Shown here in pieces: positions 23,929 to 63,150 of a DNA stretch of 64,000 nucleotides. Under the pieces are notes generated by a model. That model worked only from the letters and a program-made list of their open reading frames with translations. It did no database searches and was not told the DNA's origin. The position numbers were made by a program, and so were the translations under genes. Source of the DNA: Candidatus Parcubacteria bacterium (GTDB taxonomy: Bacteria; Patescibacteriota; Minisyncoccia; UBA9983); the NCBI GenBank assembly GCA_003599625.1, contig QZIU01000008.1, positions 1,690 through 65,689 on the forward strand, in the 5' to 3' direction. Positions within the stretch are counted from its first letter, which is position 1. Each line of letters opens with the position of its first letter.

Positions 23929-24646
23929 AAAAGACGCCATTCACAAAGCTTGGCTTTACAGGGTTCTGCAGTCACTCGCGGATGAGCCTTATCTTGCGGG
24001 TTGTTTATATTTTAAGGGCGGGACATGCGCTTCCATGCTTGGTTGGCTGGACAGATTTTCCGTTGATCTGGATTTTGATTACGCAGGGGAGGAGAAAGAT
24101 GTCAAAAAAACAAAAATCTTACTTGAGAAAATTTTTGCCGAATTGGGGTTGACTATTAAAGACGGCAGTAAAAACGGAATCCAATATTTTCTGAAATACG
24201 AGAATGACGGCCGGGGGAGAAGAATATTAAAACTGGATGCTTCGTTTCCACTCTTTCATGCCAGCAAGTATAAGCCGGAGAGATTTTTGGAGATAGACAG
24301 AATTCTGAACTGCCAAACCAAAGAAACGATGTTTGCTCATAAGCTCGTTGCTTTGAGGGACAGGTTCAACCGAACCGGGGGCATCGCGGGAAGAGATATA
24401 TACGACATTCACCATTTTTTCATGAATGGATGGAAATATGATACAGAGGTGATCATAGAAAGAACCGACAAAGAGCCGAAAGAGTTTCTAAAAGAACTCG
24501 TTGGATTTATAGAAACCAAGGTTTCCAAAAAACATATTGATGAAGACTTGAACCCGCTCCTTCCGGCGGGTAAATTCGCTTTGGCTCGTAAAGTTCTAAA
24601 GGGGGAAACAATTAGCCTTATAAAAGATGAAATAAGGAGGTTGTAG
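23903..24646 (+). CDS. AbiEii/AbiGii-family nucleotidyltransferase toxin (DUF1814)
   Basis: LYFKGGTCASMLGWLDRFSVDLDFDY matches the GGTAL...RFSEDIDF nucleotidyltransferase motif of AbiEii. Confidence 0.7.
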   Translation: MSSMILPDKKDAIHKAWLYRVLQSLADEPYLAGCLYFKGGTCASMLGWLDRFSVDLDFDYAGEEKDVKKTKILLEKIFAELGLTIKDGSKNGIQYFLKYENDGRGRRILKLDASFPLFHASKYKPERFLEIDRILNCQTKETMFAHKLVALRDRFNRTGGIAGRDIYDIHHFFMNGWKYDTEVIIERTDKEPKEFLKELVGFIETKVSKKHIDEDLNPLLPAGKFALARKVLKGETISLIKDEIRRL

Positions 24647-24686
24647 GCAGGAGAGTCTTGTATTTTTAACACTTCGCGTTAATTCT

Positions 24687-42064: not shown

Positions 42065-43394
42065 AAGAGAAAAAAAAATAATAATATTGATCACAATCGC
42101 AATTTTTATTTTTTCACTGGCGATTTCTTTTACCCTCAGGATCCCGCCTGAAGTTGATGCCAGGGCTTACGATAGAATTGCGGTTAATCTTATAAACGGA
42201 AGCGGTTACATTGAGGATGCCGGAAAAAACCTTGCAGACGATTTTTCCATCGCGAGAGTCGGTCCTGGCTACGAATTCTTCCTTGCCGGAATTTATAAAA
42301 TATTTGGTCATCGATATTGGGTTGTTTGGTTTTTCCAGGCATTATTGCACGCCTTAACCGCATTTCTTGTCTACGAAATATCAAAGAGAATATTTAAAAG
42401 CCAATGGAGATCAACGGCTGGATATCTGGCGGCTTTGCTAGTTGGTTTTTCGCCAGACTTGCTCTTGGCAAGCTCAATGTTGTTGACGGAAACTTTGGGT
42501 ATTTTTCTTATGGTGTCGGCTGTATATTTATTTTTTAGATATTTTGATGATAACAGGCTTATAATTCTTGTTGCTTCGGCCATTTTTTTTGGAGTTGCCG
42601 TGCTTACCCGCTCCCAATTGGTTGTATTCTTGCCGATCTTCGCGGCTCCCTTGCTCTTTAAAAAAGAGTGGATGAGGGTGACTATTTTTATTCTGCTATT
42701 GGCTGCAATTTTTGCCCCATGGGTTGCAAGGAATTACAAAGTTTACAACGAGTTTATACCGTTTAACGCTTCCTTAGGCTACAACCTCTGGGGTGGAAAT
42801 CACATTGGGGCCAGCGGGGAAATGGAGACAAATTACGCGCCTTTGATAGAATACGCGGTAAATCATATGCCTATTGAGGTTAATGAAGAAGGAGTTTCCA
42901 AATTTAAAGAGTTTCTTATTGATCATCCTGTTGATTTTATAAAATTGATCGGGAAAAAGATTTCAATATTTTTCAGTTTCAGCAGGCCGACTGGTTTTTG
43001 GCCGACCCTATATCCTTTCCAGCAGGCAGCCATCGCCTTCTTTTCGCTGATTTATTCCGTCTTGATATTTGGCTTGGGGATTTCCGGGGGCGTATTGATG
43101 GTAAAAAAACTTAAAACGATGGATCAGTCGGAGAAGATCAAGACAATTTTCGCCCTTGCCATGGCAGTATTGATACCTCTTTCCGTTATTGTTATTTTAG
43201 TGGAAAGTCGGTACAGGTATCCGATATATCCTTTTATGGCGATTTTTGCCGGATATTTGGCATCACACAAGAATGAAGTTTTTAAAAATCTTAAATATCC
43301 CTTGATGGTTTTTGCTATATTGTTTTTAAATTCTTTTTTTGATTTTTTTGCGAATTTTGAAAGATTTTGGGATAAATTTAAAGAAATTCTTTAA
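42057..43394 (+). CDS. GT-C fold membrane glycosyltransferase (ArnT/GT39/GT83-like)
   Basis: Multi-TM protein. Start set at MIKREKK, overlapping the radical SAM stop by 8 nt. Confidence 0.65.
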   Translation: MIKREKKIIILITIAIFIFSLAISFTLRIPPEVDARAYDRIAVNLINGSGYIEDAGKNLADDFSIARVGPGYEFFLAGIYKIFGHRYWVVWFFQALLHALTAFLVYEISKRIFKSQWRSTAGYLAALLVGFSPDLLLASSMLLTETLGIFLMVSAVYLFFRYFDDNRLIILVASAIFFGVAVLTRSQLVVFLPIFAAPLLFKKEWMRVTIFILLLAAIFAPWVARNYKVYNEFIPFNASLGYNLWGGNHIGASGEMETNYAPLIEYAVNHMPIEVNEEGVSKFKEFLIDHPVDFIKLIGKKISIFFSFSRPTGFWPTLYPFQQAAIAFFSLIYSVLIFGLGISGGVLMVKKLKTMDQSEKIKTIFALAMAVLIPLSVIVILVESRYRYPIYPFMAIFAGYLASHKNEVFKNLKYPLMVFAILFLNSFFDFFANFERFWDKFKEIL

Positions 43395-43396
43395 TT

Positions 43397-44002
43397 ATGA
43401 CGCAAAACTACATCAAGCCCGGCTATATTACCAAGGATCGCTGGAATAATTATTGGTATCAAATCGATAGCTTGAAAAGATTTAGAAATGCCAAGACAGT
43501 TTTAGAGATTGGACCTGGTAATAAAGTCGTAAACGATATGTTGAAGAAGCTCGGTTTCTTGGCGAAATCTGTTGATGTAGACAAGTCGGTTTCTCCGGAT
43601 TACATAGCATCCGCGGAAAAAATTCCCGTGGATGATAAAAGTTATGATTTGGTTTTAGCCGCAGAGATAATAGAACATCTTCCTTTTGAAAAAGTTGACG
43701 AAGTTTTGGAAGAAATCAAGAGGATTGCCAAGACAGGGGCTGTAATTTCTCTCCCGCACTCCGGCTATACGCTTTCTTTGGGCTTTAAAGTTCCTCTTAT
43801 AAAGTGGAAATTCGGAATTTTAAAAATCCCGCACTTTTGGCGAAGAAAAACTTCCACAGAAGAGCACTTCTGGGAACTTGGATTAAGGAATTATCCGGTC
43901 AGGAAATTTAAAAAAATTCTTAAAAAGGCAGGTTTTAAAATAATTAATAATTTTATTGGGCACGATGACCCATCCCACATTTTCTTTGTCTTGGAACTAT
44001 GA
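43397..44002 (+). CDS. Class I SAM-dependent methyltransferase
   Basis: VLEIGPGNKVV motif I. Confidence 0.7.
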   Translation: MTQNYIKPGYITKDRWNNYWYQIDSLKRFRNAKTVLEIGPGNKVVNDMLKKLGFLAKSVDVDKSVSPDYIASAEKIPVDDKSYDLVLAAEIIEHLPFEKVDEVLEEIKRIAKTGAVISLPHSGYTLSLGFKVPLIKWKFGILKIPHFWRRKTSTEEHFWELGLRNYPVRKFKKILKKAGFKIINNFIGHDDPSHIFFVLEL

Positions 44003-45477
44003 CAAGTGTTCAAAAAAAGGACTTGTTTTTAATCGGGATTTTATTAGCCATAACTGGTTTTTTCTTTTTTAACGATTTTTTAACGGCTCCCAGGGTTGCC
44101 TGGGACGAGGGATTAAATCTTAACCTCGCCAAAAATCTGGCAGAATTTGGCAAGTGGCAGGTACAGGAATCGCCCGGCCAATTTTCCGGGCAAACTCATT
44201 TTTATTCAACCGGGTGGACAATCCTTTTTCCGTCCGCCGTTATTTTTAAAATTTTTGGCGTCAGTTTTATGGCGGGCAGATTGATGATGTTTGCTTACTT
44301 GACTGGGTTCTTGATATTATCTTTCTTTTTGGGAAAAATGTGGTTTGGAAGGAGCGCGGCTTTTCTTGGAGTCCTTTTAATAGCCGTATTTACTCCCGTT
44401 TATACTTACGGCAAGCCCCTTTTGGGAGAAATACCAAGCTTGTTCTGGCTGGTTCTTGGTATCTTGCTTTTTGAAAAATTAAAGCAAAAATGGCAATGGC
44501 AACATGCCGCATTGACCGGATTTTGCTTTGGAGCAGCAGCCGCTTCAAAGTTAACATATGTAATCTTATTTTCTCCCGTTGTTGCGATAATGGCTTTAAC
44601 ATACTTTGCCAGAAAGAAAGTCTCATTAATTTGGTTGCTATTTTTTACCCTTTCCTTTTTTGTGGCAATTGCTCCCGTCTTATGGTTTTCTTTCTCTTTT
44701 GCTGTCTTAAATTCCTCATTTGGCGAAGTAATTTCATTTTATTCAAACAATCATGCTTCCAGTTGCCTCTCCTGCGACGTGAAAAATAATTTCATAAAGT
44801 TTTTTACTTCCAAAAGTCTCCTTTATACCGGTGTATTGATGATGATTGCTATTTTGGGGGCGTTAAAAATCTTTATCAAAAACAAGACTTTGCATTACGC
44901 CGTTTGGGGAGCCGGTTTGTATGGACTGTTAACTCTGACTTACTTCTTTAAAAGTCCCGGGGTTGTCAGATATCTTTTGCCGATACAAATCATCGTAATT
45001 TTTGTCGCTCCGTTTTTAATTATTAGGCTGGCTGACAATTTATCAGAAGTTATTAAAAATAAAATTTTTTTAAAAAGGCTTGGTTGGGCGCTCATTGCTT
45101 TGCTTGTTTTATTCAATCTTTACTCAATTATAATCTCAGGTTATGCCACTTCATCATCAGCTCCCGTTGAGATGGAAAAGTATGTAAAGAATTATTTGCC
45201 CAAAGAAGGGATGGTGGGCGTTATTAATCTTCCCGCTTTAGCCGCGGTTATCCCTTCTCATAGATTGATAAACTACATAAGAATAGACAATCAAACAGAC
45301 AGAGCGGTGGGGATCAACCCCCTTGCATTTAACAAAGAAGAAATGCCAGAATTTTTGATTTTTGACGAGTCTAACGGAAAAACAGAAAAAGATCTCAGGC
45401 CATTCAATGACAAGCTGGAGAATTTATATGCAAAAATTTTTGAAGCTGAAAAGTATAAAATTTTTCAATTAAAATGA
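43999..45477 (+). CDS. GT-C fold membrane glycosyltransferase (paralog of 32511-33995)
   Basis: PRVAWDEG loop motif and the shared KIFGV motif. ~11 TM helices. Confidence 0.7.
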   Translation: MTSVQKKDLFLIGILLAITGFFFFNDFLTAPRVAWDEGLNLNLAKNLAEFGKWQVQESPGQFSGQTHFYSTGWTILFPSAVIFKIFGVSFMAGRLMMFAYLTGFLILSFFLGKMWFGRSAAFLGVLLIAVFTPVYTYGKPLLGEIPSLFWLVLGILLFEKLKQKWQWQHAALTGFCFGAAAASKLTYVILFSPVVAIMALTYFARKKVSLIWLLFFTLSFFVAIAPVLWFSFSFAVLNSSFGEVISFYSNNHASSCLSCDVKNNFIKFFTSKSLLYTGVLMMIAILGALKIFIKNKTLHYAVWGAGLYGLLTLTYFFKSPGVVRYLLPIQIIVIFVAPFLIIRLADNLSEVIKNKIFLKRLGWALIALLVLFNLYSIIISGYATSSSAPVEMEKYVKNYLPKEGMVGVINLPALAAVIPSHRLINYIRIDNQTDRAVGINPLAFNKEEMPEFLIFDESNGKTEKDLRPFNDKLENLYAKIFEAEKYKIFQLK

Positions 45478-46818: not shown

Positions 46819-47748
46819 ATGAATGGAAAGATAGGAATTGTAGGAGTAGGAGTGGTTGGAGGATATAGAAAAACTTGGTTCGAAAGCGAAGGGTATAAAA
46901 GAGGCCGTTCACTCTTTCTTAGAGATTTCCGGAAAGGGTATTATGACAAGCTGACTGAACCTGATTTGATCTTCATATCAGTTTGTCCGCCGGCTAAAAA
47001 TCCCAGAAAATCAACTTTTCTTTTGGTAAGATCTGTAATAAAAAAACTTCCTTGTAGAAAGGTAATTGTTATTAACTCAACCCTGGGGATAGGTCATACT
47101 CTTAAGCTGCAGAATGAGTTTAAACATCACTCTCTGTTCTTTAATCCAGAATTTATATGGATGCCTGATGGGTTTAAAAATACCATTGAGCCAGAGAGAC
47201 AAATAATCGCGCCAGCCATTAAATCTGAGCAAACAAAAGAAATGGCAATGCAAATCCTGCGACTTTTGCCAAAGGCGATAAAATTTGAATCGCCATCGGA
47301 CGAAGTTTTTTTGTCTTCTACAGAGGCTGAAATAGTGAAATTATTCACTAACTTCTACATTTCTCAGCAAGTTGATTTTTCTAGTCTGCTTTACGAGGTG
47401 TGCCAAGATATGGAAACTTACAGAAAGATTATGGGAACTATGTTACACGATGATAGAATTTCCCCTTCCCACTTAATCAATCCAATTCATGGAGGGTATG
47501 TTGGCTGGGGAGGGCATTGTCTTATAAAAGATGCTTATCAGCTCAAGAATAGCCTGGAAGGCAAGGAGAAGAAGAGGGTAATCGCTTCACTGTCTTACAA
47601 TAAAGCAGTTTTGAAGGGCCAAGGAATAACGGAAAGCGAAGCGGCTCTTAAAAAAACTTCCAGACATAATGGAATAAAGCAGAAAGGAGGAATAAACAGT
47701 GAACAAGAAAGTGATTTTCGTAACAACTCCAGTCTTGGAGTTGGATGA
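46819..47748 (+). CDS. Hypothetical Rossmann-fold protein (possible truncated nucleotide-sugar dehydrogenase-like)
   Basis: GIVGVGVVGG dinucleotide-binding motif. Preceded by AAGGAG RBS. Confidence 0.35.
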   Translation: MNGKIGIVGVGVVGGYRKTWFESEGYKRGRSLFLRDFRKGYYDKLTEPDLIFISVCPPAKNPRKSTFLLVRSVIKKLPCRKVIVINSTLGIGHTLKLQNEFKHHSLFFNPEFIWMPDGFKNTIEPERQIIAPAIKSEQTKEMAMQILRLLPKAIKFESPSDEVFLSSTEAEIVKLFTNFYISQQVDFSSLLYEVCQDMETYRKIMGTMLHDDRISPSHLINPIHGGYVGWGGHCLIKDAYQLKNSLEGKEKKRVIASLSYNKAVLKGQGITESEAALKKTSRHNGIKQKGGINSEQESDFRNNSSLGVG

Positions 47749-48982
47749 TGATTGTCTTGAGCCGCCGTTGGGGATTCTTTACATGGCCACTATTTTAAGG
47801 CAAAGGGGCATTGAATGTTCCGTATGCGATTTATCCGGGCTGGGAGATGACAAAACTAAATGGCAGGCTGATTTAGAATTCGGAGAGATATATGCTTTTT
47901 CCACTTATTCTGTAACATACAGACGGACACTGGAAGTAAAAAAATTAATCCAAGAAAGAATTAATCCTGACGCGATTTTTATAGGAGGCGGCCATCATGT
48001 TACAGCGATGCCCGGCGATTGTATCAATGACTTTGATATTATAATCACCGGAGAAGCGGAAAAAACTTTTCCCGAGGTTGTAAGCAAAATTTTATCAGGA
48101 ACGGTTGTGAAGGGGGTTATTAAAGGCCAACCTGTAACGGAATTGGACACGATTCCTTTTCCGGATTTTAATTTAGTTGATCTCGGAAGGTATCACCGCA
48201 TAGTCGAAGGTAAGCCAAGTTTAAGCCTTGTATCCAGCAGAGGCTGTCCTTTTAAATGCGCGTTTTGCAATAGTAGAATATCAGACAGGGGAAGTTTAAG
48301 ATTTCGTTCCGCCGATAATGTTGTCACTGAGATATGCGAGCTGATTAAGAGTTATGGCATAAGACATTATCGCTTCAATGATGATTTGTTTACTTTTTCA
48401 AAAAAACGAGTATTTGAAATAGCAGAACTTCTTATCAAAAAGGCTGATATTATCTACAGAGTATTTGCCCAGGCAAGAACACTGACACCGGACATATGCA
48501 ATATTCTCTATGAGAGCGGATGCAGGCATGTTTCAATTGGTATTGAAAGCATGTCTGACAGGATGTTAAAGCTTTTGGAGAAAGGCAACACTGCCGAACA
48601 AAATTCGACAGCCCTTGATAATTGTAAAAAAGCCGGTCTTAAAGTAAGAATCTATCTTATGGTCGGCTTTCCTGGCGAAACGGAGGAAACGGTAAAAGAA
48701 TCATTGGAAAAACTAAAACAATGTCATTTTGATGAATTTGTCGTCTATTCTTTTATTCCGTATCCAGGCACTCCTGTCTGGCATAATCCCGCAAAATGGG
48801 GAATAAAAAATATGGATAAAGATTTTACCAAATATGTTCAGGTGGGAAAAAGAAGAAGTACCTGTTTTGTAGTTGAAACCAAAGATTTCACCTCGGCTGA
48901 CGTAGAAAGATGGCGAAGGGCAATGATAGATGAGTTGGAAAGAAGATTCTGTTGGGCGGGACAATCTCCTGACAATAAATGA
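47699..48982 (+). CDS. B12-binding radical SAM enzyme
   Basis: SRGCPFKCAFCNS motif with an N-terminal B12-like domain. Confidence 0.85.
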   Translation: MNKKVIFVTTPVLELDDDCLEPPLGILYMATILRQRGIECSVCDLSGLGDDKTKWQADLEFGEIYAFSTYSVTYRRTLEVKKLIQERINPDAIFIGGGHHVTAMPGDCINDFDIIITGEAEKTFPEVVSKILSGTVVKGVIKGQPVTELDTIPFPDFNLVDLGRYHRIVEGKPSLSLVSSRGCPFKCAFCNSRISDRGSLRFRSADNVVTEICELIKSYGIRHYRFNDDLFTFSKKRVFEIAELLIKKADIIYRVFAQARTLTPDICNILYESGCRHVSIGIESMSDRMLKLLEKGNTAEQNSTALDNCKKAGLKVRIYLMVGFPGETEETVKESLEKLKQCHFDEFVVYSFIPYPGTPVWHNPAKWGIKNMDKDFTKYVQVGKRRSTCFVVETKDFTSADVERWRRAMIDELERRFCWAGQSPDNK

Positions 48983-53665: not shown

Positions 53666-54682
53666 TTGAATCCTAAATTTTCTATTATAATACCGCTTTA
53701 TAACAGCTCCTTGACCATAAAGGACTGTTTAGATGCTGTTCTGAATCTTGATTATAGCAAGGAAGATTATGATGTTACTGTGGTTGACGATGCTTCGACC
53801 GACAATTCTGCTGAAATAGCCTCCGGTTTTCCTTTCAGATTGATAAAATCAGGCAGTAATAATGGTCCCGCTGCGGCTAGAAATATCGGCGCCAAACAGG
53901 CCAAAGGAGACTTTCTGTTCTTTCTTGACGCTGATGTGGTTCTACCGAAAAATTGTTTGAAATTGGCTGAAGATTGCCTAAAGGAAAAAAACAGAAAAGT
54001 TTTTTTTGCCTCTTTTTCGCGGCAGATGCGATATCAAAACGCAAGCAGTCAGTATAAGAATCTTTATCTGTGTTATTATTATCTTAAACAAAAAGAAAGG
54101 ACTCATACTTTGGATACGTCTTTTGCTTTTGTTTCGAGAGACTTATTTGAAGAAGTTAAGGGATTTGACGTTATGCCGAAAAAATTCGGGGAAGATATTG
54201 ACCTGGGTATGAGGTTGACAAAGATGGGCCATCATATAGAAATAAACAAAGAAATAGAGGCTGAGCACTTAAAAAAGTATAATTTTAAAAAATTAATGAA
54301 GACCGATTATCGCAGGGGGAAGGAAATATCCCGCCTTTTTTTAAAAAACTTTTTTAAAAAAGAAAAAAAAGAAAAAAGTTTTTTTTCCATGAGACCATTA
54401 AATATTTATTTTAATATGCCGATTTCTTTTCTTATTTCGGCCTTAGCGATAGCAACAATTATCTCATATAAAATTTTTATTTTTCCTTTGGTTCTTGTTA
54501 TTTCCTTTTTTGTGGGGATAAATTGTGGCTTTTGGTTCTATTTGTTTAAAGCGAACGGCTTCTTTTTTCTGCTTAAGGCGCTTTTTATAACTTTTGCTGA
54601 TTCATTGGCAATGGGATTAGGCACGGCAGTTTCTCTCTTTGCTGTTTTAAAAGAAAAAGTTATAGTTAAAAGATATGAATGA
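53666..54682 (+). CDS. Glycosyltransferase family 2
   Basis: FSIIIPLYNS...VVDDASTDNS, DAD, C-terminal TM helices. Confidence 0.8.
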   Translation: MNPKFSIIIPLYNSSLTIKDCLDAVLNLDYSKEDYDVTVVDDASTDNSAEIASGFPFRLIKSGSNNGPAAARNIGAKQAKGDFLFFLDADVVLPKNCLKLAEDCLKEKNRKVFFASFSRQMRYQNASSQYKNLYLCYYYLKQKERTHTLDTSFAFVSRDLFEEVKGFDVMPKKFGEDIDLGMRLTKMGHHIEINKEIEAEHLKKYNFKKLMKTDYRRGKEISRLFLKNFFKKEKKEKSFFSMRPLNIYFNMPISFLISALAIATIISYKIFIFPLVLVISFFVGINCGFWFYLFKANGFFFLLKALFITFADSLAMGLGTAVSLFAVLKEKVIVKRYE

Positions 54683-55772
54683 ATATAAGTTTAACAATCT
54701 TGTCGGGTACATAAGGGGATTGAAATATTTGCGGAGAGCCGTGCTAAAAAAGAGTGGGACGCCGCTTTACTTGATTTTTTTCATAACGAGCAAATGCAAT
54801 TTGCGTTGTAAACATTGTTTTTATTGGAAAGAACTAAATAAAGAGGAAAAATTCCTGAGCCTTGAAGAAATTCAGAAAATATCATTAAGCATGGAAGATT
54901 TGCCTTACTTGCGTTTAACCGGCGGCGAACCAAGTTTAAGGCCAGACTTTCCTCAAATTGCCGAAATATTCTACAAAAATAACAACCTGATAAATTTAGG
55001 GATAAACACTAATGGTTTTTTTACAGAAAAAATAATTGCAGGAGTCCAACAAATATTGGAGAAATGCCCAGATCTTAACGTTGATGTTTGTGTAAGCCTG
55101 GATGATACCCGAAAAGGTCATGATAATAATAGAGGCGTGGCTGGGACATATGATAATGCCGTCAATACTTTGCTTAAACTTAATAAATTAAGAGAAATTT
55201 ATCCCAAAATGAAGACGGTAATCGGATTGGACTTAAACAAAAGCAACCAAGACCGTTTGGCCTTAATCTTTGAGGAAATAAAGGCTCTGGATGTAAGTTA
55301 TATTTGCGACACGGTAGTCCGGGGGGATCCCAAAGAACCAGCCATCAAAGATGTTAAGATGAGTAATTATAAAACGCTCAATGATTTAGTGGGTTCTTAC
55401 AATATAAAAAGACAACACCACGCCTACTTTAATATAAACGCTAAGGATAAGATGGTCGAAGAAGCGGTTTTAAAAGCCAGAGTGGAAAATAAATGGTGGG
55501 GTTTTAATTGCACGGCGGGTGTAAACGCCGGAGTAATTTACGCGGATGGCGCTGTTTTCCCATGCGAGGGGAGGAATGAAAAAATAGGCAACATAAGAGA
55601 TTATAATTATGATTTTAAAGAACTTTGGAACTCCGAAGAAAATCAAAAAATAAGGGAAACGATCAAAAAAGGCAGGTGTCATTGCACCCATGAAAACTTC
55701 ATAACAGCCAGTATTTTTTCAAGTCCTTACGCTTTAATAAAACTTTTGTTTAAGGCTTTTAGAGACAATTAA
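54675..55772 (+). CDS. Radical SAM enzyme with C-terminal SPASM/twitch-like Cys cluster
   Basis: SKCNLRCKHCFY radical SAM motif plus a C-terminal cysteine cluster CTAG...CEG...CHCTH. Confidence 0.75.
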   Translation: MNEYKFNNLVGYIRGLKYLRRAVLKKSGTPLYLIFFITSKCNLRCKHCFYWKELNKEEKFLSLEEIQKISLSMEDLPYLRLTGGEPSLRPDFPQIAEIFYKNNNLINLGINTNGFFTEKIIAGVQQILEKCPDLNVDVCVSLDDTRKGHDNNRGVAGTYDNAVNTLLKLNKLREIYPKMKTVIGLDLNKSNQDRLALIFEEIKALDVSYICDTVVRGDPKEPAIKDVKMSNYKTLNDLVGSYNIKRQHHAYFNINAKDKMVEEAVLKARVENKWWGFNCTAGVNAGVIYADGAVFPCEGRNEKIGNIRDYNYDFKELWNSEENQKIRETIKKGRCHCTHENFITASIFSSPYALIKLLFKAFRDN

Positions 55773-55870: not shown

Positions 55871-56575
55871 ATGAAAGTTGTTATTTTAGCTGCTGGAGAA
55901 GGAAGAAGGATGCGTCCTATAACGCTTGAAAGACCAAAACCGCTCATTAAAATAAACAACAAGCCTATTCTCTCTCATATCCTTGAATCTCTTCCAAAGG
56001 AAGTAGAAGAAGTTGTGCTGGTTGTAAGGTATCTGGCTGAAAAAATTAAAAATTTTTTTGGCAGAGAATTCATGGATCGTAAAATAAGTTATGCTGCCGG
56101 TTCTCCTCTGGGGACCGCTCATAGTTTCCTGGCGGCAAGTAAATCCATCGGAAGAGAAGAAAGATTCTTGGCACTCTATGGTGACGAGTTGGTTTTAAAA
56201 GAGGATATAGAAAATTGCCTCAAAGAAAGATTTTCTGTAATAGTTTTTAAATCGGAAAAACCATGGGCGGGTGGAGTCGCGAAGATTGATCAAAGCGGCT
56301 ATCTGATAAATATTGAGGAGAAACCGGAGAATCCATCCTCTGATATGGTGGCAGGCGGAATAATGGTTATTGACGGAGGAATTTTTGAGTGTGAGGCTGC
56401 AAGGGGAGCAAAAGGGGAGTATTATCTATCAGCTTTGCTGGCTCAGTTTGCCAAAAAAAAGAAAGTAAAAGCTGTTATTTCAGAAGAATTTTTAGGGGAC
56501 ATAACAACCCCTGAAGATATTAAAAGAATAGAATTGAAGATGAAATTGAGAGAACTAAGAAAGGAGGAAGCATGA
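55871..56575 (+). CDS. Sugar-phosphate nucleotidyltransferase (HddC/GmhD-like heptose-1-phosphate guanylyl/nucleotidyltransferase)
   Basis: ILAAGEGRRMRPITLERPKPL NTP-transferase motif. Operon context with hddA/gmhA/gmhB. Confidence 0.7.
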   Translation: MKVVILAAGEGRRMRPITLERPKPLIKINNKPILSHILESLPKEVEEVVLVVRYLAEKIKNFFGREFMDRKISYAAGSPLGTAHSFLAASKSIGREERFLALYGDELVLKEDIENCLKERFSVIVFKSEKPWAGGVAKIDQSGYLINIEEKPENPSSDMVAGGIMVIDGGIFECEAARGAKGEYYLSALLAQFAKKKKVKAVISEEFLGDITTPEDIKRIELKMKLRELRKEEA

Positions 56576-57543
56576 TTATTACAAAAACGCCATTCCGTAT
56601 CTCTTTGGGAGGCGGGGGAACGGATCTACCTTCCTATTGCAGGAATTTCGGCGGGTTTATATTTGGCGTAGCCATCAATCTTTACTTTAAAGTTTTTGTC
56701 ACAAAACCTGTGATAGATGAGGATGTGCATGTTAGATATTCCCAATATGAGGCGGTGGCACATCATTGTGATCTTAAGCACAATATCAGCAGAGAGTCGC
56801 TAAAAATGCTAGGCGTTTCAGCCAATATAGACATTACTTTCCAAAGCGATACGCCGGCAGGGACCGGACTTGGCTCTTCTGGAAGTTGCGCCGTCGGTCT
56901 TTTAAATGCTCTTCATTGCTTTAAAGAAAGACCCGTCTCTCAGGAAAAATTGGCCCAAGAAGCTTTCAAGGTTACGCAGAATCTTGGTTGGCCTGACGGA
57001 GCTCAAGATCCTTATCTAGCTGCGTTAGGAGGCTTTGTTGTACTGGAGATCGATAAAAGTAATAATGTTACTTTCTATCACCCTGAGATTGCGGAAGAAA
57101 CGGTTAAAAGATTTCTGAATCAAACACTGCTTTTCTATACGGGGGTCAGGAGAAATAGCGCTGATGTCTTAGGGCAGCAGGACCGAAAAAAAGCCATCGA
57201 GGCAAAGCATATAACCAAAGAGATTGGTCTTGATATCTTAAAAAATTTCGAATTGGGAGATTTAGATCGATTTGGGGTTAATATGCGCAAACATTGGGCG
57301 CTTAAAAAGCAGATGTCAAGCAACATAAGCTCGGATTATTTTGACAGTATTTACGACCTGGCCATAAAAAATGGCGCTATGGGCGGAAAATTAATAGGAG
57401 CGGGCGGGGGAGGATATTTCCTTTTTTACTGCTCTGGAGAAAAGATTGGCGGAGTAAAAAAAATATTGTCTGAAAACGGGTTAAGACAGGTAGCTTTTGG
57501 GATTGATTATCAAGGCACGAGATTTTTGGACGTTGATTTTTGA
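56572..57543 (+). CDS. GHMP kinase, D-glycero-D-manno-heptose 7-phosphate kinase (HddA)-like
   Basis: GHMP motif PAGTGLGSSGSCAVG and the characteristic N-terminal ISLGGGGTDLP. Confidence 0.75.
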   Translation: MIITKTPFRISLGGGGTDLPSYCRNFGGFIFGVAINLYFKVFVTKPVIDEDVHVRYSQYEAVAHHCDLKHNISRESLKMLGVSANIDITFQSDTPAGTGLGSSGSCAVGLLNALHCFKERPVSQEKLAQEAFKVTQNLGWPDGAQDPYLAALGGFVVLEIDKSNNVTFYHPEIAEETVKRFLNQTLLFYTGVRRNSADVLGQQDRKKAIEAKHITKEIGLDILKNFELGDLDRFGVNMRKHWALKKQMSSNISSDYFDSIYDLAIKNGAMGGKLIGAGGGGYFLFYCSGEKIGGVKKILSENGLRQVAFGIDYQGTRFLDVDF

Positions 57544-57567
57544 AAATTACAGAAAGGAAGACGCAAT

Positions 57568-58176
57568 ATGACGAATAAATACATTCTAAAATACTGTTCT
57601 GAATCTGTCGCTTGTATTATGGACTTAAAAAAATGCGCCGCAAAAATTGACCAGATAGTTGAAAATCTTTCTGATGCGTGGAAAAAAAGAAGAAATGTTT
57701 TTGTCATAGGGAATGGAGGATCGGCTTCTACGGCAACTCATTTTGCGGCAGATTTGATGAAGACAACAACAGATTCACCTTCAGGTGCTGGCATAAAAGC
57801 TATTTCTTTGGACAATGTTCCTTTAAATAGCGCGATCATAAACGACTGGGGGAAAGAACAACTCTTTTTTTGTCAACTGAATGCGTTATTTAATCCGGAG
57901 GATTTACTTGTTGTTTTTAGCGTGCATGGCGGCGCGGGCAGTGACAAAGCTGGCTTGTGGTCTCAAAATCTTGTTCAAGCTATTAATTTTGCAAAAGATA
58001 AAAGAGGCTTGACGATCGGATTTTCCGGGTTTGACGGCGGAATAATGGCAAAGATTTGCGACATATCCTTGGTGGTTCCTGTTAATTCCACGCCATTGGT
58101 AGAATCTTTTCATCTTTGGTTGTCACACCTGATCACATTTCGTTTAAAGGAGCTTATGAATGAGAGACAAATGTAG
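57568..58176 (+). CDS. gmhA: Phosphoheptose isomerase (SIS domain)
   Basis: VFVIGNGGSASTATHFAADL SIS signature. Confidence 0.85.
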   Translation: MTNKYILKYCSESVACIMDLKKCAAKIDQIVENLSDAWKKRRNVFVIGNGGSASTATHFAADLMKTTTDSPSGAGIKAISLDNVPLNSAIINDWGKEQLFFCQLNALFNPEDLLVVFSVHGGAGSDKAGLWSQNLVQAINFAKDKRGLTIGFSGFDGGIMAKICDISLVVPVNSTPLVESFHLWLSHLITFRLKELMNERQM

Positions 58177-58750
58177 AAAGAGAGCTGTTTTTATTGATAG
58201 AGACGGTGTAATCAACAAACTTGTGCATAGGCCTGGAATTGATGTGTGCGGAAGACGAATTTGTTATTCGGCCCCATGGAGTTACAGAGAGCTTGAAATA
58301 TATCAGGAAACAAAGAGTTCCTTAGATGCCTTAGGAAGGTTAAATTTACTCAAATTTCTGGTAACTAATCAGCCTGACATAGGATACGGTTTACTGCCAC
58401 GGGAAGAGCATAATAAAATTATGGCGGACATCTTCGCTCTTGGTTTTGATGATATTTTTATTTGCTTCCACGGAAGGCATGAAAATTGCAATTGCAAAAA
58501 ACCAAAACCTGGAATGCTGATAGAAGCGGCTCGGAAATGGAATATAGACCTGGGGAATTCTTATATGGTTGGCGATTCTGTTTCTGACATGGAGGCCGGT
58601 AAGTCTGTCGGATGTAAGACTTTGCTCGTAAGCGATTCTTTGAAGACAATTTGCAATAAATATGATTTTGTTGCGAAAAATATTTTGGAGGTGGCAAGGA
58701 TTATAGAGAAGAACGAAAGGAGAAAGAGAAACGATGGAAATTTTTATTGA
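58160..58750 (+). CDS. gmhB: D,D-heptose 1,7-bisphosphate phosphatase (HAD-IIIA)
   Basis: DRDGVIN motif I plus the Zn-binding Cys cluster C...CxC. Confidence 0.8.
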   Translation: MRDKCRKRAVFIDRDGVINKLVHRPGIDVCGRRICYSAPWSYRELEIYQETKSSLDALGRLNLLKFLVTNQPDIGYGLLPREEHNKIMADIFALGFDDIFICFHGRHENCNCKKPKPGMLIEAARKWNIDLGNSYMVGDSVSDMEAGKSVGCKTLLVSDSLKTICNKYDFVAKNILEVARIIEKNERRKRNDGNFY

Positions 58751-59468
58751 TTCGGCCAATCTTGAAGAGATAGAAGAGGCTCTTAAGCGAGGGTTTATAA
58801 GAGGCATTACAACGAATCCTTCAATTGTCGCGAAAGAAGAAAAAACGGACTTTAATTCATTGTTAATTAAGATAGGAGAGCTGATTAAAAAATACAGGCC
58901 AAATACTCACTTGAGCATTGAAGTTTTTTCAAAAGTACCTGAAGAAATTGAGAGACAGGCTAAGGAGTTTCAAAAAATTCTTAATCTGCCGGAACTAAGC
59001 ATCAAAGTGCACATTGGTTGGGACGAACTTGAGATCATTAGAAAATTGGCAAAGGATGGTTTTAGTGTTAATTGCACGTGTTGCATGACAGTAACTCAGG
59101 CCATTATGGCCGCTGCCGCCGGATCAAAGTATGTTTCTCTTTTTTGGGGAAGGATACGGGATGGAGGTCAAGATGAAAACTTCAAAGAAGAGAGGGATAA
59201 AGTTATAAAAGAAAAAACTTTAAGAGAAGAAGATTTTGATCCTGCTCTCGTTGTGAAGAAAGTCAAAAAATTTCTAACGCAAAATTATTCAGAAACTAAA
59301 TTAATAATCGGAAGCATTCGCTCTGCCTCTGATATTATGGATGCGGGCTTTTGCGGAGCGGATATTGTCACGATTCCTCCGAAATTATTTCCGGGAATGA
59401 TTAATCACTTTAAAACAGATGAAGTGATTAATCAGTTTTTGACTGATTTTCAAGCCTGGTTAAAGTGA
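58734..59468 (+). CDS. Transaldolase / fructose-6-phosphate aldolase family
   Basis: MEIFIDSANLEEI...GITTNPS signature plus Schiff-base Lys region. Confidence 0.8.
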   Translation: MEIFIDSANLEEIEEALKRGFIRGITTNPSIVAKEEKTDFNSLLIKIGELIKKYRPNTHLSIEVFSKVPEEIERQAKEFQKILNLPELSIKVHIGWDELEIIRKLAKDGFSVNCTCCMTVTQAIMAAAAGSKYVSLFWGRIRDGGQDENFKEERDKVIKEKTLREEDFDPALVVKKVKKFLTQNYSETKLIIGSIRSASDIMDAGFCGADIVTIPPKLFPGMINHFKTDEVINQFLTDFQAWLK

Positions 59469-59521: not shown

Positions 59522-60454
59522 ATGATATCCATTATTTTCCCCGCGTACAATGAAGAAGATAATGTCAATTTGCTTCATGCCAGAATAAAAGAAGCCATGG
59601 TCTCTGTTGGTATGGAATATGAAATCATAGCGGTTGACAACGGATCTACCGACGGCACGCTTCGGAAACTAAAAGAACTATCTCCTATAAAGATAATTGA
59701 AATAGCAAAAAATATAAATCAAACAACCGGAATAGATGCCGGAATTAAAAATGCCGAAGGTGATATAATTATATTGATAGATGGGGACAGGCAAAATGAT
59801 CCAGCTGATATTCCGAAACTTTTGAATAAGCTCAATGAAGGTTTTGACATAGTTTCGGGGTGGCGTCTTAAAAGAGAAGATATTTGGTTAAGAAGATTTG
59901 TTTCATTGTTGGCAAACTGGATTACATATAAAATGACCGGGCTTCGTTTGCATGATTATGGTTGCGCTTTAAAAGCTTACAGGAAAGATATTCTAAATAA
60001 TATATCATTGTATGGAGAAACTCACGCTTTTCTTCCGGCCATTCTCTTTATGAAAGGTGCGATGGTTGCAGAAATACCAGTAAATCATTTTCCAAGAATA
60101 AATGGGAAATCAAAAGTAAAATTTTCCGGATTATTTAAAAATATTGGGGATTTGCTGTCTGTTGTTTTTTTACAGAAACACATGAGGAGGCCGTTGGTTT
60201 TTTTCGGCACTTGGGGAATAACGAGCATCTTTTTAGGAATTATTGCCGCGATTGCCGCGATTGCCTTAAAAATTCTTCAAGTGAGAAATTTGGCCCAAAC
60301 TCCCTTGCCCGTAATAGCTTCACTTTTTTTTATTATGGGTTTCATATTTTTTATGTGGGGTTTTTTAGGGGAAATGATGGCAAAAATCTATTTTGAAGGG
60401 AAGGACAGGACCCCTTACCTTATAAGAAGAATAACAAAAATCAGCTCTTCTTAA
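59522..60454 (+). CDS. Glycosyltransferase family 2 with C-terminal TM helices (polyprenyl-phosphate glycosyltransferase-like)
   Basis: ISIIFPAYNEE...VDNGSTDGT, DGD motif, two C-terminal TM helices. Confidence 0.8.
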   Translation: MISIIFPAYNEEDNVNLLHARIKEAMVSVGMEYEIIAVDNGSTDGTLRKLKELSPIKIIEIAKNINQTTGIDAGIKNAEGDIIILIDGDRQNDPADIPKLLNKLNEGFDIVSGWRLKREDIWLRRFVSLLANWITYKMTGLRLHDYGCALKAYRKDILNNISLYGETHAFLPAILFMKGAMVAEIPVNHFPRINGKSKVKFSGLFKNIGDLLSVVFLQKHMRRPLVFFGTWGITSIFLGIIAAIAAIALKILQVRNLAQTPLPVIASLFFIMGFIFFMWGFLGEMMAKIYFEGKDRTPYLIRRITKISSS

Positions 60455-60467
60455 GAAGAGCTGATGG
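60439..60467. terminator. Bidirectional hairpin between convergent genes
   Basis: Perfect 13-bp inverted repeat atcagctcttctt/aagaagagctgat overlapping the stop codon. Confidence 0.55.
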
Positions 60468-60477
60468 GCTTAATAAC

Positions 60478-61479
60478 TTAGATTATTTTTCTTGAGAGAA
60501 TTGATTGTTTTGTTCTTAAGGCCATTTCAAGCACAGTTTTACCTTGTTCCAAATCCACCAGCTCCTCTGCCTTCCCTGAAAGTGCTTTAAGAAAATGCGA
60601 CATTATTTCAATGTACATCATATTTCTTTCATAGCCAGCTGGCTCATTAATAATTTCTTCATTGCCTTCCATTGGTATAATCTTAGCTTCCTTTTTGAAA
60701 TAATCCCAACGGATTCTCCCTTTTGCCCCTGTGATTTCTATGAATCTGCTCGGCGGTTTTTTGAAATAATCCACATGAAGGGAAGCGATGACGCCGTTTG
60801 GAAATTGCATAATGCTTTTTGCCATATCCTCAACTTCAATATCAAGATTGCTTAGTTTCCCTCCAGTCGCAAAAATCCATTCCGATTTGCCGAATAGAGA
60901 ATAAAGCATATCAAGTTCATGGCTTTGAGTCAGAACCACACCTCCGCCAAGATCTTCACGGCTAGCATATGACGCGCGGTAGTCTTCCCAGGGATGCCAA
61001 TCAGTTAATCTTTCCGCCATTTCCATGTGGACGCATAAGACTTTGCCAATCCTCTCCTCGTTTAACCATTTTTGGATTTGCTTAAACAGGGGATGAAAAC
61101 GTAGTTGATAAGCAACAAAAACTTTCAATCTCTTCCTTTCCGTAATTTTCTTTAGGTCGTCCACTTTTTCCAATGAATGCGATATTGGTTTTTCCAAAAA
61201 AATATGACATCCTGCTTGTGCCGCGGTTATGGCCATAGGAATGTGAAGAGAAGTGGGGTTTGTTATTATTGCCGCTGTCGGTTTTTCTTTTAATGCGTCA
61301 TCAATAGAGTAGAATACTGGATGTTTGCCGCCGTGTTCGGATAAAACTTTGTCTCCGAAGTTTTTTGTTCCCTTGCCGGTTCGGTAAATAAGAATGTCTT
61401 CACATTTTACACCCAGCTTTTCCAAGTTTTCCAAGTGCCTTTTTCCGATACTTCCCAGTCCGCAGATTAAAAATTTCAT
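60478..61479 (-). CDS. Gfo/Idh/MocA-family NAD(P)-dependent oxidoreductase
   Basis: N-terminal Rossmann MKFLICGLGSIGKRH and the family's EKP motif. Confidence 0.85.
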   Translation of the reverse strand: MKFLICGLGSIGKRHLENLEKLGVKCEDILIYRTGKGTKNFGDKVLSEHGGKHPVFYSIDDALKEKPTAAIITNPTSLHIPMAITAAQAGCHIFLEKPISHSLEKVDDLKKITERKRLKVFVAYQLRFHPLFKQIQKWLNEERIGKVLCVHMEMAERLTDWHPWEDYRASYASREDLGGGVVLTQSHELDMLYSLFGKSEWIFATGGKLSNLDIEVEDMAKSIMQFPNGVIASLHVDYFKKPPSRFIEITGAKGRIRWDYFKKEAKIIPMEGNEEIINEPAGYERNMMYIEIMSHFLKALSGKAEELVDLEQGKTVLEMALRTKQSILSRKII

Positions 61480-61506: not shown

Positions 61507-62331
61507 TTACCAAACAGTTTGTCCGCCGTCTGCCGTTACAATACTGCCAGTGATAAAAGAGGAAGCATCTGAACAGAGGAAAAGAATCAATCCGTTGTAT
61601 TCATCCGGCTTTGCAGGCCGCCCTAACATGTTTCTTTGACCTAATTTGGCCAAAAATTCCGGTTCCATTGATCCGAAATTAACGGCTCCCAGGCATACGG
61701 AATTTACTCGCACATTTGGAGCAGTGGAAGCAAAATAAGCCGCCCAACTTCTCGTTAAACCCAACAATGCTGTTTTTACCACCGGGTAAGCAGCCGATTT
61801 AAATTTGCCTTTCTCATACTTCCGATGGTCTGGAGCTGTGATTGCCGAAGTGGAAGCAATGTTAAGTATAATCCCGCTGTTTTGTCTTATCATGTGGCGA
61901 GCTGAGGCTTGGGTGCAATACATTGCGCCGTTTAGACCGATATCAAATTCTTTAAGCCATAAACTTTGCGGGTAGTCTTCATGAGGAAGCCAACATTCGC
62001 TTCCTGTTGAATCAGCATCTTTGCCCACCTTTGGATTAAAAGCGGCATTATTAATAAGAATATCCACTGAACCGTATTTTTGTTCAACAATATCAGTGGC
62101 TCGGAAAACATCATCTTTTTTGGTAATGTCAACTTTTTCTTGTTGAATATTCTTACCCAAAGCGTTGTTTATGACCACATCAAAAGAAACGACATTAGCC
62201 CCTGCTTTTTTAAGGGCTGTGACATATTGAACACCTAGTCTTCCTGCCCCACCTGTTATGATGGCAGTCATACCTTGGAGAGAAAACAAATTTGCAATGA
62301 AATCCCTGTCCAATTTTTTATTTAATGCCAT
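61507..62331 (-). CDS. Short-chain dehydrogenase/reductase (SDR)
   Basis: TGGAGRLG cofactor motif, NNAAF, catalytic YxxxK. Confidence 0.85.
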   Translation of the reverse strand: MALNKKLDRDFIANLFSLQGMTAIITGGAGRLGVQYVTALKKAGANVVSFDVVINNALGKNIQQEKVDITKKDDVFRATDIVEQKYGSVDILINNAAFNPKVGKDADSTGSECWLPHEDYPQSLWLKEFDIGLNGAMYCTQASARHMIRQNSGIILNIASTSAITAPDHRKYEKGKFKSAAYPVVKTALLGLTRSWAAYFASTAPNVRVNSVCLGAVNFGSMEPEFLAKLGQRNMLGRPAKPDEYNGLILFLCSDASSFITGSIVTADGGQTVW

Positions 62332-62346: not shown

Positions 62347-63150
62347 CTAAATTTGCGTCAGTATTGAATTAATGTAATTAAAGTATCTTGAATTTAAATC
62401 AAAGTCGTTTACTTTATTCTGTCTTGCCCCATGAATTATCATCGGGCCGCTAAATCTAATTTCCTTAAGAGCTTGTAAAGTTTTCTGGAAATCTACGCAC
62501 CCAGTGCCAATAGGCACTGTCTCTCCTTTGTTGGCCAATCTGTCTTTGATATGAATGCCAAAAATCATTTTGTTGATCTTAAGAATTTCCGCCGCCGTGT
62601 CCGCCCCTATGCTTGCCATATTGCCGATGTCGTAATAAGAACCCACGAAAGAGGAATCAAAGGAATTGATTATTTCCAATAGGTCATCTGCCATTAGTTC
62701 TGTTTCTATTCCTAATCTAACACCCGTTTTTTCACAGGTGTCCAAGCAAGAGCTTATCAAACGCGCCGCATCCTTTTTTACCGATAAATCGGTGAGAAGA
62801 TTGTTATGGAAAAAAGGGATAAGCACTGTTTTTGCGCCAATCATTGCTGCTTGCTTAATAAGGTGATTAAGAGTCTCAGGATAATCAGTTGATCTTAAAA
62901 AAAATCCGTGTACTGAATCAATCTCGATACCTGAGGCATCTGCTATGTCCTTAATTTTCGTTACTCCTTTTTGTTCCATGAATGGATTGTTTTTGATTGT
63001 ATGATCGTTCTTAATCAGTAACTCAACATGGCTAAAGCCGATCCCTTTGGCAAGTCTAAATTCATTTTGCCAATTATCTGTCGGAAAAAACTGTATTCCT
63101 CTGCCGTTTGACGGGGTCAATCTTCCTTGCAAAATTCCTATTTTTAACAT
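62347..63150 (-). CDS. Sugar phosphate isomerase/epimerase (xylose isomerase-like TIM barrel)
   Basis: Length and the pattern of conserved acidic/His residues. Operon with the SDR and the oxidoreductase. Confidence 0.6.
   Translation of the reverse strand: MLKIGILQGRLTPSNGRGIQFFPTDNWQNEFRLAKGIGFSHVELLIKNDHTIKNNPFMEQKGVTKIKDIADASGIEIDSVHGFFLRSTDYPETLNHLIKQAAMIGAKTVLIPFFHNNLLTDLSVKKDAARLISSCLDTCEKTGVRLGIETELMADDLLEIINSFDSSFVGSYYDIGNMASIGADTAAEILKINKMIFGIHIKDRLANKGETVPIGTGCVDFQKTLQALKEIRFSGPMIIHGARQNKVNDFDLNSRYFNYINSILTQI

Follow-up and report, generated by a model that had tools for sequence, protein, structure and literature searches.

Five contiguous genes at positions 55871-59468 of a 64,000-nucleotide stretch of Candidatus Parcubacteria DNA (contig QZIU01000008.1; this whole stretch is hereafter called the window) encode a nucleotidyltransferase (NTase), a GHMP kinase, a SIS-type isomerase, a HAD-IIIA phosphatase and, last in order, a small transaldolase (TAL). 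Our analysis shows the cassette to be genuine and conserved. It represents a form of the heptose-type sugar-nucleotide pathway that had not been described before and that is set apart by an obligate TAL and by an isomerase in which a catalytic Glu is replaced by Asp. The cassette would turn central sugar phosphates into a nucleotide-activated higher-carbon (C7 or C8) aldose destined for a surface glycan, and TAL is very probably an integral member that primes this pathway. TAL is a fixed member of this module in more than 100 uncultured species, so its role is probably to generate the sugar with which the pathway starts, not to compensate for a missing pentose-phosphate pathway (PPP).

Architecture of the five-gene unit

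A sequence-only reading of the window had reported the five genes as contiguous, and all of them were recovered as open reading frames (ORFs) on the plus strand with exactly the boundaries given there and with family matches far beyond chance. From the NTase gene to the TAL gene, the junctions measure -4, +24, -17 and -17 nt: the NTase gene, which is preceded by an AGGAGG ribosome-binding site, shares 4 nt with the kinase gene, and the phosphatase gene overlaps both of its neighbours by 17 nt per side. All five genes carry a ribosome-binding site of the AGGAGG/AAGGAG type 5-10 nt ahead of the ATG. Directly past the TAL stop codon, RNA folding revealed a hairpin of 15 bp followed by a U-rich tail (dG -18.4 kcal/mol, z -3.92), and none of 200 shuffled sequences folded as well. 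Because of these Shine-Dalgarno motifs, the junctions and the post-TAL hairpin, the five genes look like one transcription unit in which TAL is the last, translationally coupled gene; the terminator-like hairpin marks the 3' end of this unit. The counts of consensus promoters and terminators equalled the shuffled expectation and do not enter into this reading.

The family assignments given below hold at the level of superfamily or best match: none of the five proteins comes near its NCBIfam equivalog cutoff, and they are not certified orthologs. In the comparisons with other genomes, ORFs were called mechanically, and L-numbers denote the related loci compared.

Identity of the transaldolase

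Judged by its sequence, the last gene is a genuine transaldolase. The protein matches PF00923 at E 2e-38 in Pfam and scores 96-109 bits against the TALs of Bacillus subtilis, Thermotoga maritima and Thermoplasma acidophilum, as compared with 41-50 bits against fructose-6-phosphate aldolase (FSA). Residues D6, E63, K91, N113, T115, F137, R140, S194 and R196 are invariant among 22 TAL homologs and align to the same three characterised enzymes. We take them to represent the Schiff-base Lys, the Asp/Asn/Thr network, the Arg/Ser/Arg site that binds phosphate and, at the acid-base positions, Glu instead of Gln and Phe instead of Tyr. The bit scores and the Glu/Lys/Phe signature rule out FSA, so that only the first half of the original transaldolase/FSA-family label can be kept.

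The TIGR00875 model scores 133.5 bits on this protein against a cutoff of 245.95, its match being split in two by a 27-aa insertion. An AlphaFold (AF2) model with a predicted local distance difference test (pLDDT) value of 89 found TALs as its best Foldseek matches (TM 0.82-0.88) and superposes on small decameric TALs, with the 27-aa insertion forming an ordered helix. The window protein belongs to a 244-aa clade that carries this helical insertion and is found throughout the Candidate Phyla Radiation (CPR). No other TAL is encoded in the 64 kb of the window. A 100%-identical protein is recorded from Candidatus Parcubacteria bacterium under locus tag C4572_01060 on a 78-kb contig, and RecA and FtsK bear out the bacterial origin of the DNA.

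A non-canonical GmhA relative

The third protein contains the SIS_2 domain PF13580, and gmhA models rank best among its matches, although TIGR00441 (gmhA) gives 86.1 bits against an equivalog cutoff of 209.45. Its closest structure in the PDB is Campylobacter jejuni GmhA (1tk9, 82 bits); DiaA reaches 43 bits and was ruled out on that comparison. The catalytic site of GmhA comprises Glu65, Asp94 and Gln172 in Escherichia coli numbering (PMC4697000). In the alignment of the window isomerase, Glu65 (C. jejuni Glu63) is replaced by Asp62 and Gln172 by Glu179, while Asp94 is retained. The S-T-S-G-x-S phosphate loop of GmhA is likewise replaced by a longer S-V-H-G-G-S-G-x-D-x-x-G-x-W-S-Q-N loop (SVHGGAGSDKAGLWSQN).

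The Asp and Glu substitutions and the rebuilt phosphate loop are present in every TAL-linked homolog, and the motifs HFAADL, SVHGGAGSDKAGLWSQN and VESFH are kept in more than 40 of them. On this alignment evidence, the protein is not a canonical GmhA and is assigned to a 'type 1' clade of Asp-variant SIS proteins; what stands of the gmhA label is the SIS fold and the best rank of the gmhA models.

A second TAL-linked SIS subtype was also observed (L011, L018, L019, L026, L031, L033, L040, L050 and L060; for example L040:6339-6968). It is characterised by GVGGSAANASHAVNDFRK, SVGGG..E...S and AE[SA]WQAVxWH; here too Asp occupies the catalytic Glu position, but of the C-terminal H-x4-H pair the first His is missing.

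Conserved linkage of transaldolase and isomerase

TAL orthologs with 55-61% identity directly follow the kinase-SIS-HAD genes in Niyogibacteria, an unclassified Patescibacterium and Magasanikbacteria. A forward scan of one genome per species, in which loci were chosen by alignment-based TAL motifs alone, returned 61 loci. A SIS isomerase lies within 4 kb of TAL in 52 of them and a GmhB-like phosphatase in 45 (4 kb), and a kinase and an NTase ortholog lie within 10 kb in 40 and 35, respectively; several of the misses are truncated contigs. A reverse scan selected metagenome contigs by isomerase motifs alone and yielded 48 loci with enough downstream DNA, 41 of which contain TAL, in 38 cases within 1.5 kb, the usual order being kinase-SIS-GmhB-TAL. 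On these proportions (52/61 and 41/48) we reject chance adjacency, and they bear out the functional tie between TAL and the pathway that the sequence-only reading had proposed.

The metagenomic TALs form a separate, more canonical subclade of 222-240 aa, whose members are named in NCBI as Zixibacteria, Terriglobales, Tritonobacter and Aureabacteria. The same NTase-kinase-SIS-HAD-TAL unit occurs on three contigs, of Zixibacteria type and from Aureabacteria, inside capsule or exopolysaccharide loci. Overall, the adjacency of TAL is kept in more than 90 loci spanning several phyla and both TAL subclades, and the presence of TAL tracks the non-canonical isomerase type, not host lifestyle. It had been suggested that the host otherwise lacks a route to sedoheptulose-7-phosphate (S7P). 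This is not a sufficient explanation for TAL, because the TAL cassette is also found in free-living Zixibacteria-type and Aureabacteria contigs and in variants from other phyla.

Clustering of the 1239 neighbouring ORFs of 107 loci produced no recurrent transketolase (tkt) or ribulose-phosphate epimerase (Rpe) family; the tkt search used an E. coli TktA probe and served as a screen only. In the CPR five-gene form of the cassette, TAL never stands beside tkt, rpe or rpi. Transketolase_N/DXP-synthase-like genes were seen 4-6 kb from TAL in 2 of about 150 loci (L151:12404-12897 and L029:16446-17159), which is too rare for cassette membership.

A tblastn search against plasmids detected no cultured organism with the five-gene cassette or a variant of it. 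The taxon labels of many contigs from metagenome-assembled genomes look unreliable. Eight loci with CPR-like cassettes (L009, L012, L016, L020, L030, L033, L041 and L045; TAL 55-60% identical) are labelled 'uncultured Gammaproteobacteria bacterium'.

Kinase, phosphatase and nucleotidyltransferase

In Pfam, the kinase has both GHMP domains (PF00288, E 1e-11; PF08544, E 2.5e-8), and its GHMP motifs PAGTGLGSS and GAGGGG align with those of 4n3o and 4usm. Against the PDB, it groups with heptose-7-phosphate kinases, scoring 116-131 bits with the enzymes from C. jejuni (4n3o), Burkholderia pseudomallei (WcbL, 4usk) and Bacteroides (3k85), whereas fucokinase reaches 73 bits, mevalonate kinase 46 and galactokinase 37. 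The last two values rule out a mevalonate kinase or galactokinase identity. HddA (NF049969) is its top NCBIfam model at 147.7 bits, below the 600-bit equivalog cutoff. The HddA-like assignment is thus upheld at the level of best match, and so is the pathway type proposed with it, since a GHMP kinase and a separate NTP_transferase-type enzyme are seen in place of a bifunctional HldE.

The phosphatase exceeds the curated cutoffs of two HAD models, TIGR01656 (96.5 bits; cutoff 84.15) and TIGR01662 (67 bits; cutoff 44.6). Its sequence shows FIDRDG, the DxD nucleophile motif, together with a C-x-H-x6-C-x-C loop, in a domain of the HAD-IIIA/histidinol-phosphatase type. In the PDB, it comes closest to two GmhB structures (3l8h and 4pnh; 59 bits). 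A HAD-IIIA phosphatase with GmhB as nearest structural relative is therefore well founded, but the protein stays under every GmhB-specific cutoff (NF006506, 96 vs 178; NF050049, 75 vs 250; TIGR00213, 67 vs 150), and the gmhB label holds only in that looser sense. At L047:5189-5956 and in seven more loci, of Peribacteria type, a protein of the inositol-monophosphatase family follows TAL where no GmhB-like HAD was detected; it may be a non-homologous phosphatase replacement.

The NTase matches PF00483 (NTP_transferase) at E 1e-21 in Pfam and is the sole sugar-1-phosphate NTase of the surrounding 40-kb island. Its NCBIfam ranking is led by the Arch_glmU N-domain (158 bits), followed by AglF (126), a Thermoproteota bifunctional NTase (116) and rmlA_long (97); HddC comes fifth with 89.6 bits against a cutoff of 300, and all of these models remain below cutoff. 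Among solved structures, ST0452 scores 67 bits, GDP-mannose pyrophosphorylases (GMPP) 62 and HddC (5xhw) 43. The hddC-like label therefore does not survive: Arch_glmU, AglF and rmlA_long all outscore HddC, and the NTase falls on the GlmU/RmlA side that the sequence-only reading had itself named as grounds for rejection. On these scores, the enzyme is not specifically HddC-like and, because it does not group with HddC, GDP is no more than a candidate for the nucleotide.

Variant cassettes

TAL is kept in variant cassettes in which every other step has passed to different protein families. In Methylomirabilota, Peribacteria and one Parcubacterium (L040), it is accompanied by a PfkB/HldE-like kinase and an adenylyltransferase resembling HldE domain II. 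On contigs labelled Acidobacteriaceae, Acetobacteraceae, Bryobacterales, Doudnabacteria and Kaiserbacteria, the cassette consists of an RpiB-adenylyltransferase fusion, a PfkB kinase, a cupin, TAL and a GT9 enzyme, without GmhA (L058:6989-12033, L059:6963-12033, L067:6964-10883, L151:2466-9182 and L153:6001-10671). Relatives of the fusion protein number 987 at E<=1e-30, and its RpiB domain, examined in L059, exceeds the NCBI rpiB equivalog cutoffs (141.8 vs 138.65 and 154.5 vs 135). A cupin is present in every RpiB-type cassette, often fused to a capsule-type phosphatase, and its only PDB similarity, a weak one (E ~0.02), is to cupin-type phosphoglucose isomerases. The CPR versions (L151 and L153) add a protein of the Aldolase_II/AraD family.

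The RpiB-type variants thus hold two isomerase-type proteins, a pairing that would fit a division of labour in which RpiB supplies ribose-5-phosphate and the cupin isomerises the TAL product. We down-weighted RpiB as evidence for a ribose-5-phosphate acceptor, since it could be the pathway isomerase, and the presence of a separate cupin partly restores its weight.

Proposed pathway and its product

As a pathway, the cassette would begin with TAL moving the C3 dihydroxyacetone unit of fructose-6-phosphate (or S7P) to an aldose phosphate, which would give a ketose phosphate as the point of entry. The Asp-variant SIS isomerase would convert this ketose phosphate into an aldose terminal-phosphate, the HddA-like kinase would phosphorylate O1, and the GmhB-like phosphatase would dephosphorylate the resulting sugar bisphosphate at its terminal carbon (C7 or C8). 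The NTase would then combine the sugar-1-phosphate with a nucleoside triphosphate to yield a nucleoside diphosphate (NDP)-sugar, and an adjoining ArnC-like GT2 enzyme probably puts the sugar on polyprenyl phosphate for the GT-C transferases of the island.

The product that we tentatively favour, at a confidence a little short of probable, is an NDP-octose, TAL using ribose-5-phosphate to form octulose-8-phosphate by analogy with LmbR of lincomycin biosynthesis. LmbR is a transaldolase that takes fructose-6-phosphate or S7P as donor and ribose-5-phosphate as acceptor and forms octulose-8-phosphate (PMC4351081, PMC5854111, PMC12945683). By this analogy, the five enzymes of the window would correspond to the set that makes GDP-octose for lincomycin, an alternative that was absent from the sequence-only reading. 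With slightly more reserve, we advance a broader proposition: that hundreds of uncultured species, among them many CPR classes as well as Zixibacteria, Aureabacteria and Methylomirabilota, make NDP-octose from fructose-6-phosphate and ribose-5-phosphate as part of their primary surface-glycan synthesis.

One argument for such a product is metabolic. S7P is an obligate intermediate wherever transketolase exists; TAL needs erythrose-4-phosphate to make S7P, and erythrose-4-phosphate itself requires transketolase. TAL is therefore never strictly required for S7P, and it would be indispensable for octulose-8-phosphate. A dedicated ketose phosphate other than S7P fits the correlation between TAL and isomerase type, the altered catalytic and phosphate-binding elements of the isomerase, and the two isomerases of the variants.

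Several points weigh against an octose. The characterised best match of the kinase, the isomerase and the phosphatase is in every case a heptose enzyme, although no octose-specific models were there to compete. The catalytic and phosphate residues of TAL are fully canonical and give no sequence sign of an altered acceptor preference, and the glycosyltransferases of the variant cassettes are GT9 enzymes, members of the heptosyltransferase family. It is also conceivable that the RpiB-like domain stands in for GmhA as the isomerase of the pathway. About 15% of the isomerase-chosen cassettes have no TAL nearby, and TAL and the isomerase subtype could be merely co-inherited markers of one cassette lineage. 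The five enzyme types, with TAL co-encoded, are identical to lincomycin LmbR/N/P/K/O, but they were matched by listed functions, not by sequence. Finally, to our knowledge unbranched aldo-octoses are unreported in bacterial surface glycans, and the prior for such a product is accordingly low.

The strongest competing explanation is an NDP-heptose pathway with a built-in feeder: TAL would make S7P from fructose-6-phosphate and erythrose-4-phosphate, the SIS protein would act as GmhA, and HddA-, GmhB- and HddC-type steps would lead to GDP-heptose or another NDP-heptose. This explanation is quite possible; we rate NDP-octose only slightly above NDP-heptose, the two being nearly equal. The heptose best matches of the three central enzymes and the canonical TAL active site speak for it, as do the GT9 enzymes and HldE-like modules of the variant cassettes. 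Heptoses are also common in bacterial glycans, and a heptose module is present at KEGG level in Paceibacteria (PMC9166423). A feeder could raise flux from hexose phosphates in CPR genomes, in which tkt, rpe and rpi are common and TAL is patchy (PMC7143001).

The feeder explanation accounts less readily for the retention of TAL in about 85% of cassettes in both scan directions, in free-living phyla and even where all other steps are replaced. That TAL follows the non-canonical isomerase type and not host lifestyle also counts against it, as does the lack of tkt or rpe co-occurrence; moreover, by the metabolic argument above, a feeder would never be strictly needed where transketolase makes S7P available. 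We know of no TAL encoded in the characterised GDP- or ADP-heptose clusters (C. jejuni, B. pseudomallei, Aneurinibacillus thermoaerophilus and the lipopolysaccharide core).

A different product is unlikely. TAL could use another acceptor, the isomerase could yield a C2 epimer (for example D-glycero-D-gluco-heptose), or neighbouring epimerases could act on the ketose phosphate, giving a non-manno heptose or another higher sugar. The changed catalytic positions in all isomerase homologs would be consistent with this, as would the ketose-phosphate epimerase-type genes beside some cassettes (a UlaE-like TIM barrel in the window; Aldolase_II/AraD in L151 and L153) and the faint likeness of the variant-cassette cupin to gluco-forming phosphoglucose isomerase. 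However, no positive evidence favours any particular other acceptor, a homolog of the UlaE-like gene turned up in a single locus of the 61, and the similarities are weak (cupin E ~0.02).

That TAL is a housekeeping PPP enzyme, set beside heptose genes by chance or loose co-regulation and without a dedicated role, is highly improbable: its canonical residues, its standing as the sole TAL of the window and the practice of CPR metabolic reconstructions of counting such genes as PPP TAL (PMC5113843) would allow it, but it is contradicted by the synteny counts across phyla and TAL subclades, the 17-nt overlap with the gmhB-like gene, the terminator-like hairpin right after TAL, and the separation from tkt, rpe and rpi in the CPR five-gene form.

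Whichever product is correct, the five-enzyme unit, which many CPR classes share with several uncultured phyla of free-living bacteria and which is paired with a distinct Asp-variant isomerase clade, defines a very widespread and hitherto undescribed family of surface-glycan precursor pathways, and the cassette TAL should not count as evidence for a working non-oxidative PPP in CPR reconstructions. An octose would add a new class to the sugars of bacterial cell surfaces, and the cassette would offer an evolutionary origin for the lincosamide sugar pathway; in that case, the Asp-variant SIS protein would act as an octulose-8-phosphate isomerase, and the 'transaldolase' of many CPR PPP reconstructions would be a glycan-pathway enzyme. 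With a heptose as product, the cassette would be the first case of a heptose pathway that has an obligate S7P feeder dedicated to it, and a metabolic explanation would be needed.

Glycan island and flanking genes

The operon sits in a low-GC island of about 40 kb, with a GC content of 36-39% compared with 45-49% upstream. The fall in GC at about 24 kb marks the start of the island, and the last gene before it (23870-24646, within the region 23311-24700) encodes an AbiEii-type toxin nucleotidyltransferase. The GC shift and the AbiEii-type gene at the boundary suggest that the island was horizontally acquired or is hypervariable. Its content includes GT4 and GT2 glycosyltransferases, a short-chain dehydrogenase/reductase (SDR)-type dehydratase, an AsnB-like amidotransferase, a carbamoyltransferase and a Wzx-type flippase, as well as at least seven S-adenosylmethionine (SAM) methyltransferases that share the island with the radical-SAM enzymes (Table 1). 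This combination of radical-SAM enzymes and methyltransferases implies heavy C-/O-methylation or other radical tailoring of the glycan, and B12-binding radical-SAM genes lie near the cassette in 22 loci.

Table 1. Features of the five-gene cassette and of its surroundings in the window (positions are those of the window)
Feature	Position	Strand	Details
Sugar-1-phosphate nucleotidyltransferase, single domain, RmlA/GlmU-N type	55871..56575	+	234 aa; PF00483
HddA-like GHMP kinase	56572..57543	+	323 aa; GHMP_kinases_N and _C
GmhA-like SIS isomerase, non-canonical 'type 1' clade	57568..58176	+	202 aa; SIS_2
GmhB-like HAD-IIIA phosphatase	58160..58750	+	196 aa; TIGR01656, TIGR01662
Small TalC-type transaldolase (TAL)	58734..59468	+	244 aa; PF00923 (TAL_FSA)
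Terminator-like hairpin with U-rich tail, directly past the TAL stop codon	59472..59516	+	RNA folding
ArnC/PgfS/AglJ-like GT2 polyprenyl-phosphate glycosyltransferase	59522..60454	+	PF00535; associated, not core
GFO/IDH/MocA oxidoreductase	60478-61479	-	Pfam; convergent; associated, not core
Short-chain dehydrogenase (SDR)	61507-62331	-	Pfam; convergent; associated, not core
Xylose-isomerase-like TIM-barrel protein, weakly like L-ribulose-5-phosphate 3-epimerase UlaE	62347-63150	-	adjoins GFO/SDR
Three B12-binding radical-SAM enzymes and one SPASM radical-SAM enzyme	31124-32527, 40607-42064, 47699-48982, 54675-55772		
Three PMT_2/ArnT-like GT-C membrane glycosyltransferases	32511-33995, 42027-43394, 43999-45477		

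The GT2 enzyme immediately downstream of the cassette has ArnC as its best NCBIfam model (167 bits, below cutoff), and 41 of the 61 loci contain a homolog no more than 10 kb from TAL. Together with the three GT-C enzymes of the island, it suggests a route in which the ArnC-like GT2 loads the sugar on a lipid carrier and the GT-C enzymes then transfer it to an extracytoplasmic acceptor.

A palindromic hairpin at 60440-60465 parts the plus-strand genes from the minus-strand pair that follows, a GFO/IDH/MocA oxidoreductase and an SDR, which are probable sugar tailoring enzymes. GFO homologs lie near TAL in 39 of the 107 loci and adh_short SDRs in 25, and an SDR-GFO pair stands within the cassette in L005 and L150. 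The TIM-barrel gene next to this pair is the UlaE-like gene considered above; PDB searches with this protein and with the GFO oxidoreductase returned generic relatives only. Over the 107 loci, the recurrent neighbours of the cassette are SDR epimerases/dehydratases, GFO/IDH/MocA and adh_short proteins, B12-radical SAM enzymes, sugar dehydrogenases, DegT proteins, methyltransferases, and GT2 and GT4 glycosyltransferases.

Two further neighbours were noted in the related loci. A conserved protein of roughly 600 aa that matches nothing in Pfam adjoins the cassette in 20 loci (including L023:12437-14260, L001:7809-9638, L003:9437-11260 and L005:8440-10230), and no member was found in the window. 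A small protein of about 172 aa with a phosphoribosyltransferase domain is encoded just upstream of SIS in nine cassettes (L030:3328-3843, L005:4956-5477 and seven more). Upstream of the island, the window encodes a 1185-aa protein with a peptidoglycan-binding domain (10238-13795) and a 1066-aa protein with a lamin-tail and a beta-helix (17515-20715), both of which are possible cell-surface proteins.

Comparison with known systems

The route to ADP-L-glycero-beta-D-manno-heptose (GmhA, HldE or HldA plus HldC, GmhB and HldD, with GT9 transferases) resembles the variant cassettes, which share with it a PfkB kinase like rfaE domain I, an adenylyltransferase like rfaE domain II, and GT9. It employs a PfkB kinase and a cytidylyltransferase-like adenylyltransferase, whereas the window has a GHMP kinase and an RmlA-like NTase and no HldE-type enzyme in these roles. 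Moreover, the ADP-heptose route includes GmhA, in place of which the RpiB-type variants carry an RpiB domain and a cupin, in addition to TAL.

The HddA-type heptose route is closer to the window cassette. The two share the same four superfamilies and the same chemical logic (ketose-phosphate isomerase, GHMP anomeric kinase, HAD-IIIA phosphatase and sugar-1-phosphate NTase), the kinases of this route are the best matches of the window kinase, and a surface-glycan setting is common to both. The window differs in having TAL as an obligate fifth member, in the Asp for Glu and Glu for Gln172 substitutions and the rebuilt loop of its isomerase, in an NTase that is not HddC-like, and in scores that lie far below the NCBIfam equivalog cutoffs.

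The lincosamide sugar pathway is the only characterised pathway that we found in the literature in which TAL is co-encoded beside GmhA-, HddA-, GmhB- and HddC-like enzymes; as far as we found, a TAL built into a sugar-nucleotide operon has been characterised only this once, and there it creates an eight-carbon sugar. In that pathway, the isomerase LmbN, the kinase LmbP, the phosphatase LmbK and the guanylyltransferase LmbO lead from octulose-8-phosphate to GDP-octose (PMC4351081 Table 2; PMC5854111 Box 1; PMC12945683). The settings differ: the lincomycin pathway belongs to an actinomycete antibiotic cluster and the window cassette to a surface-glycan island of CPR and other uncultured phyla, and the island has glycosyltransferases and a flippase where the lincomycin cluster has nonribosomal peptide synthetase and mycothiol parts. 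The ribose-5-phosphate acceptor and the C8 product are features of the lincomycin pathway that we infer for the window cassette. The likeness extends beyond the five enzymes, in that the downstream dehydrogenase, oxidoreductase, epimerase and aminotransferase genes of the lincomycin cluster have family-level counterparts among the recurrent neighbours of the cassette.

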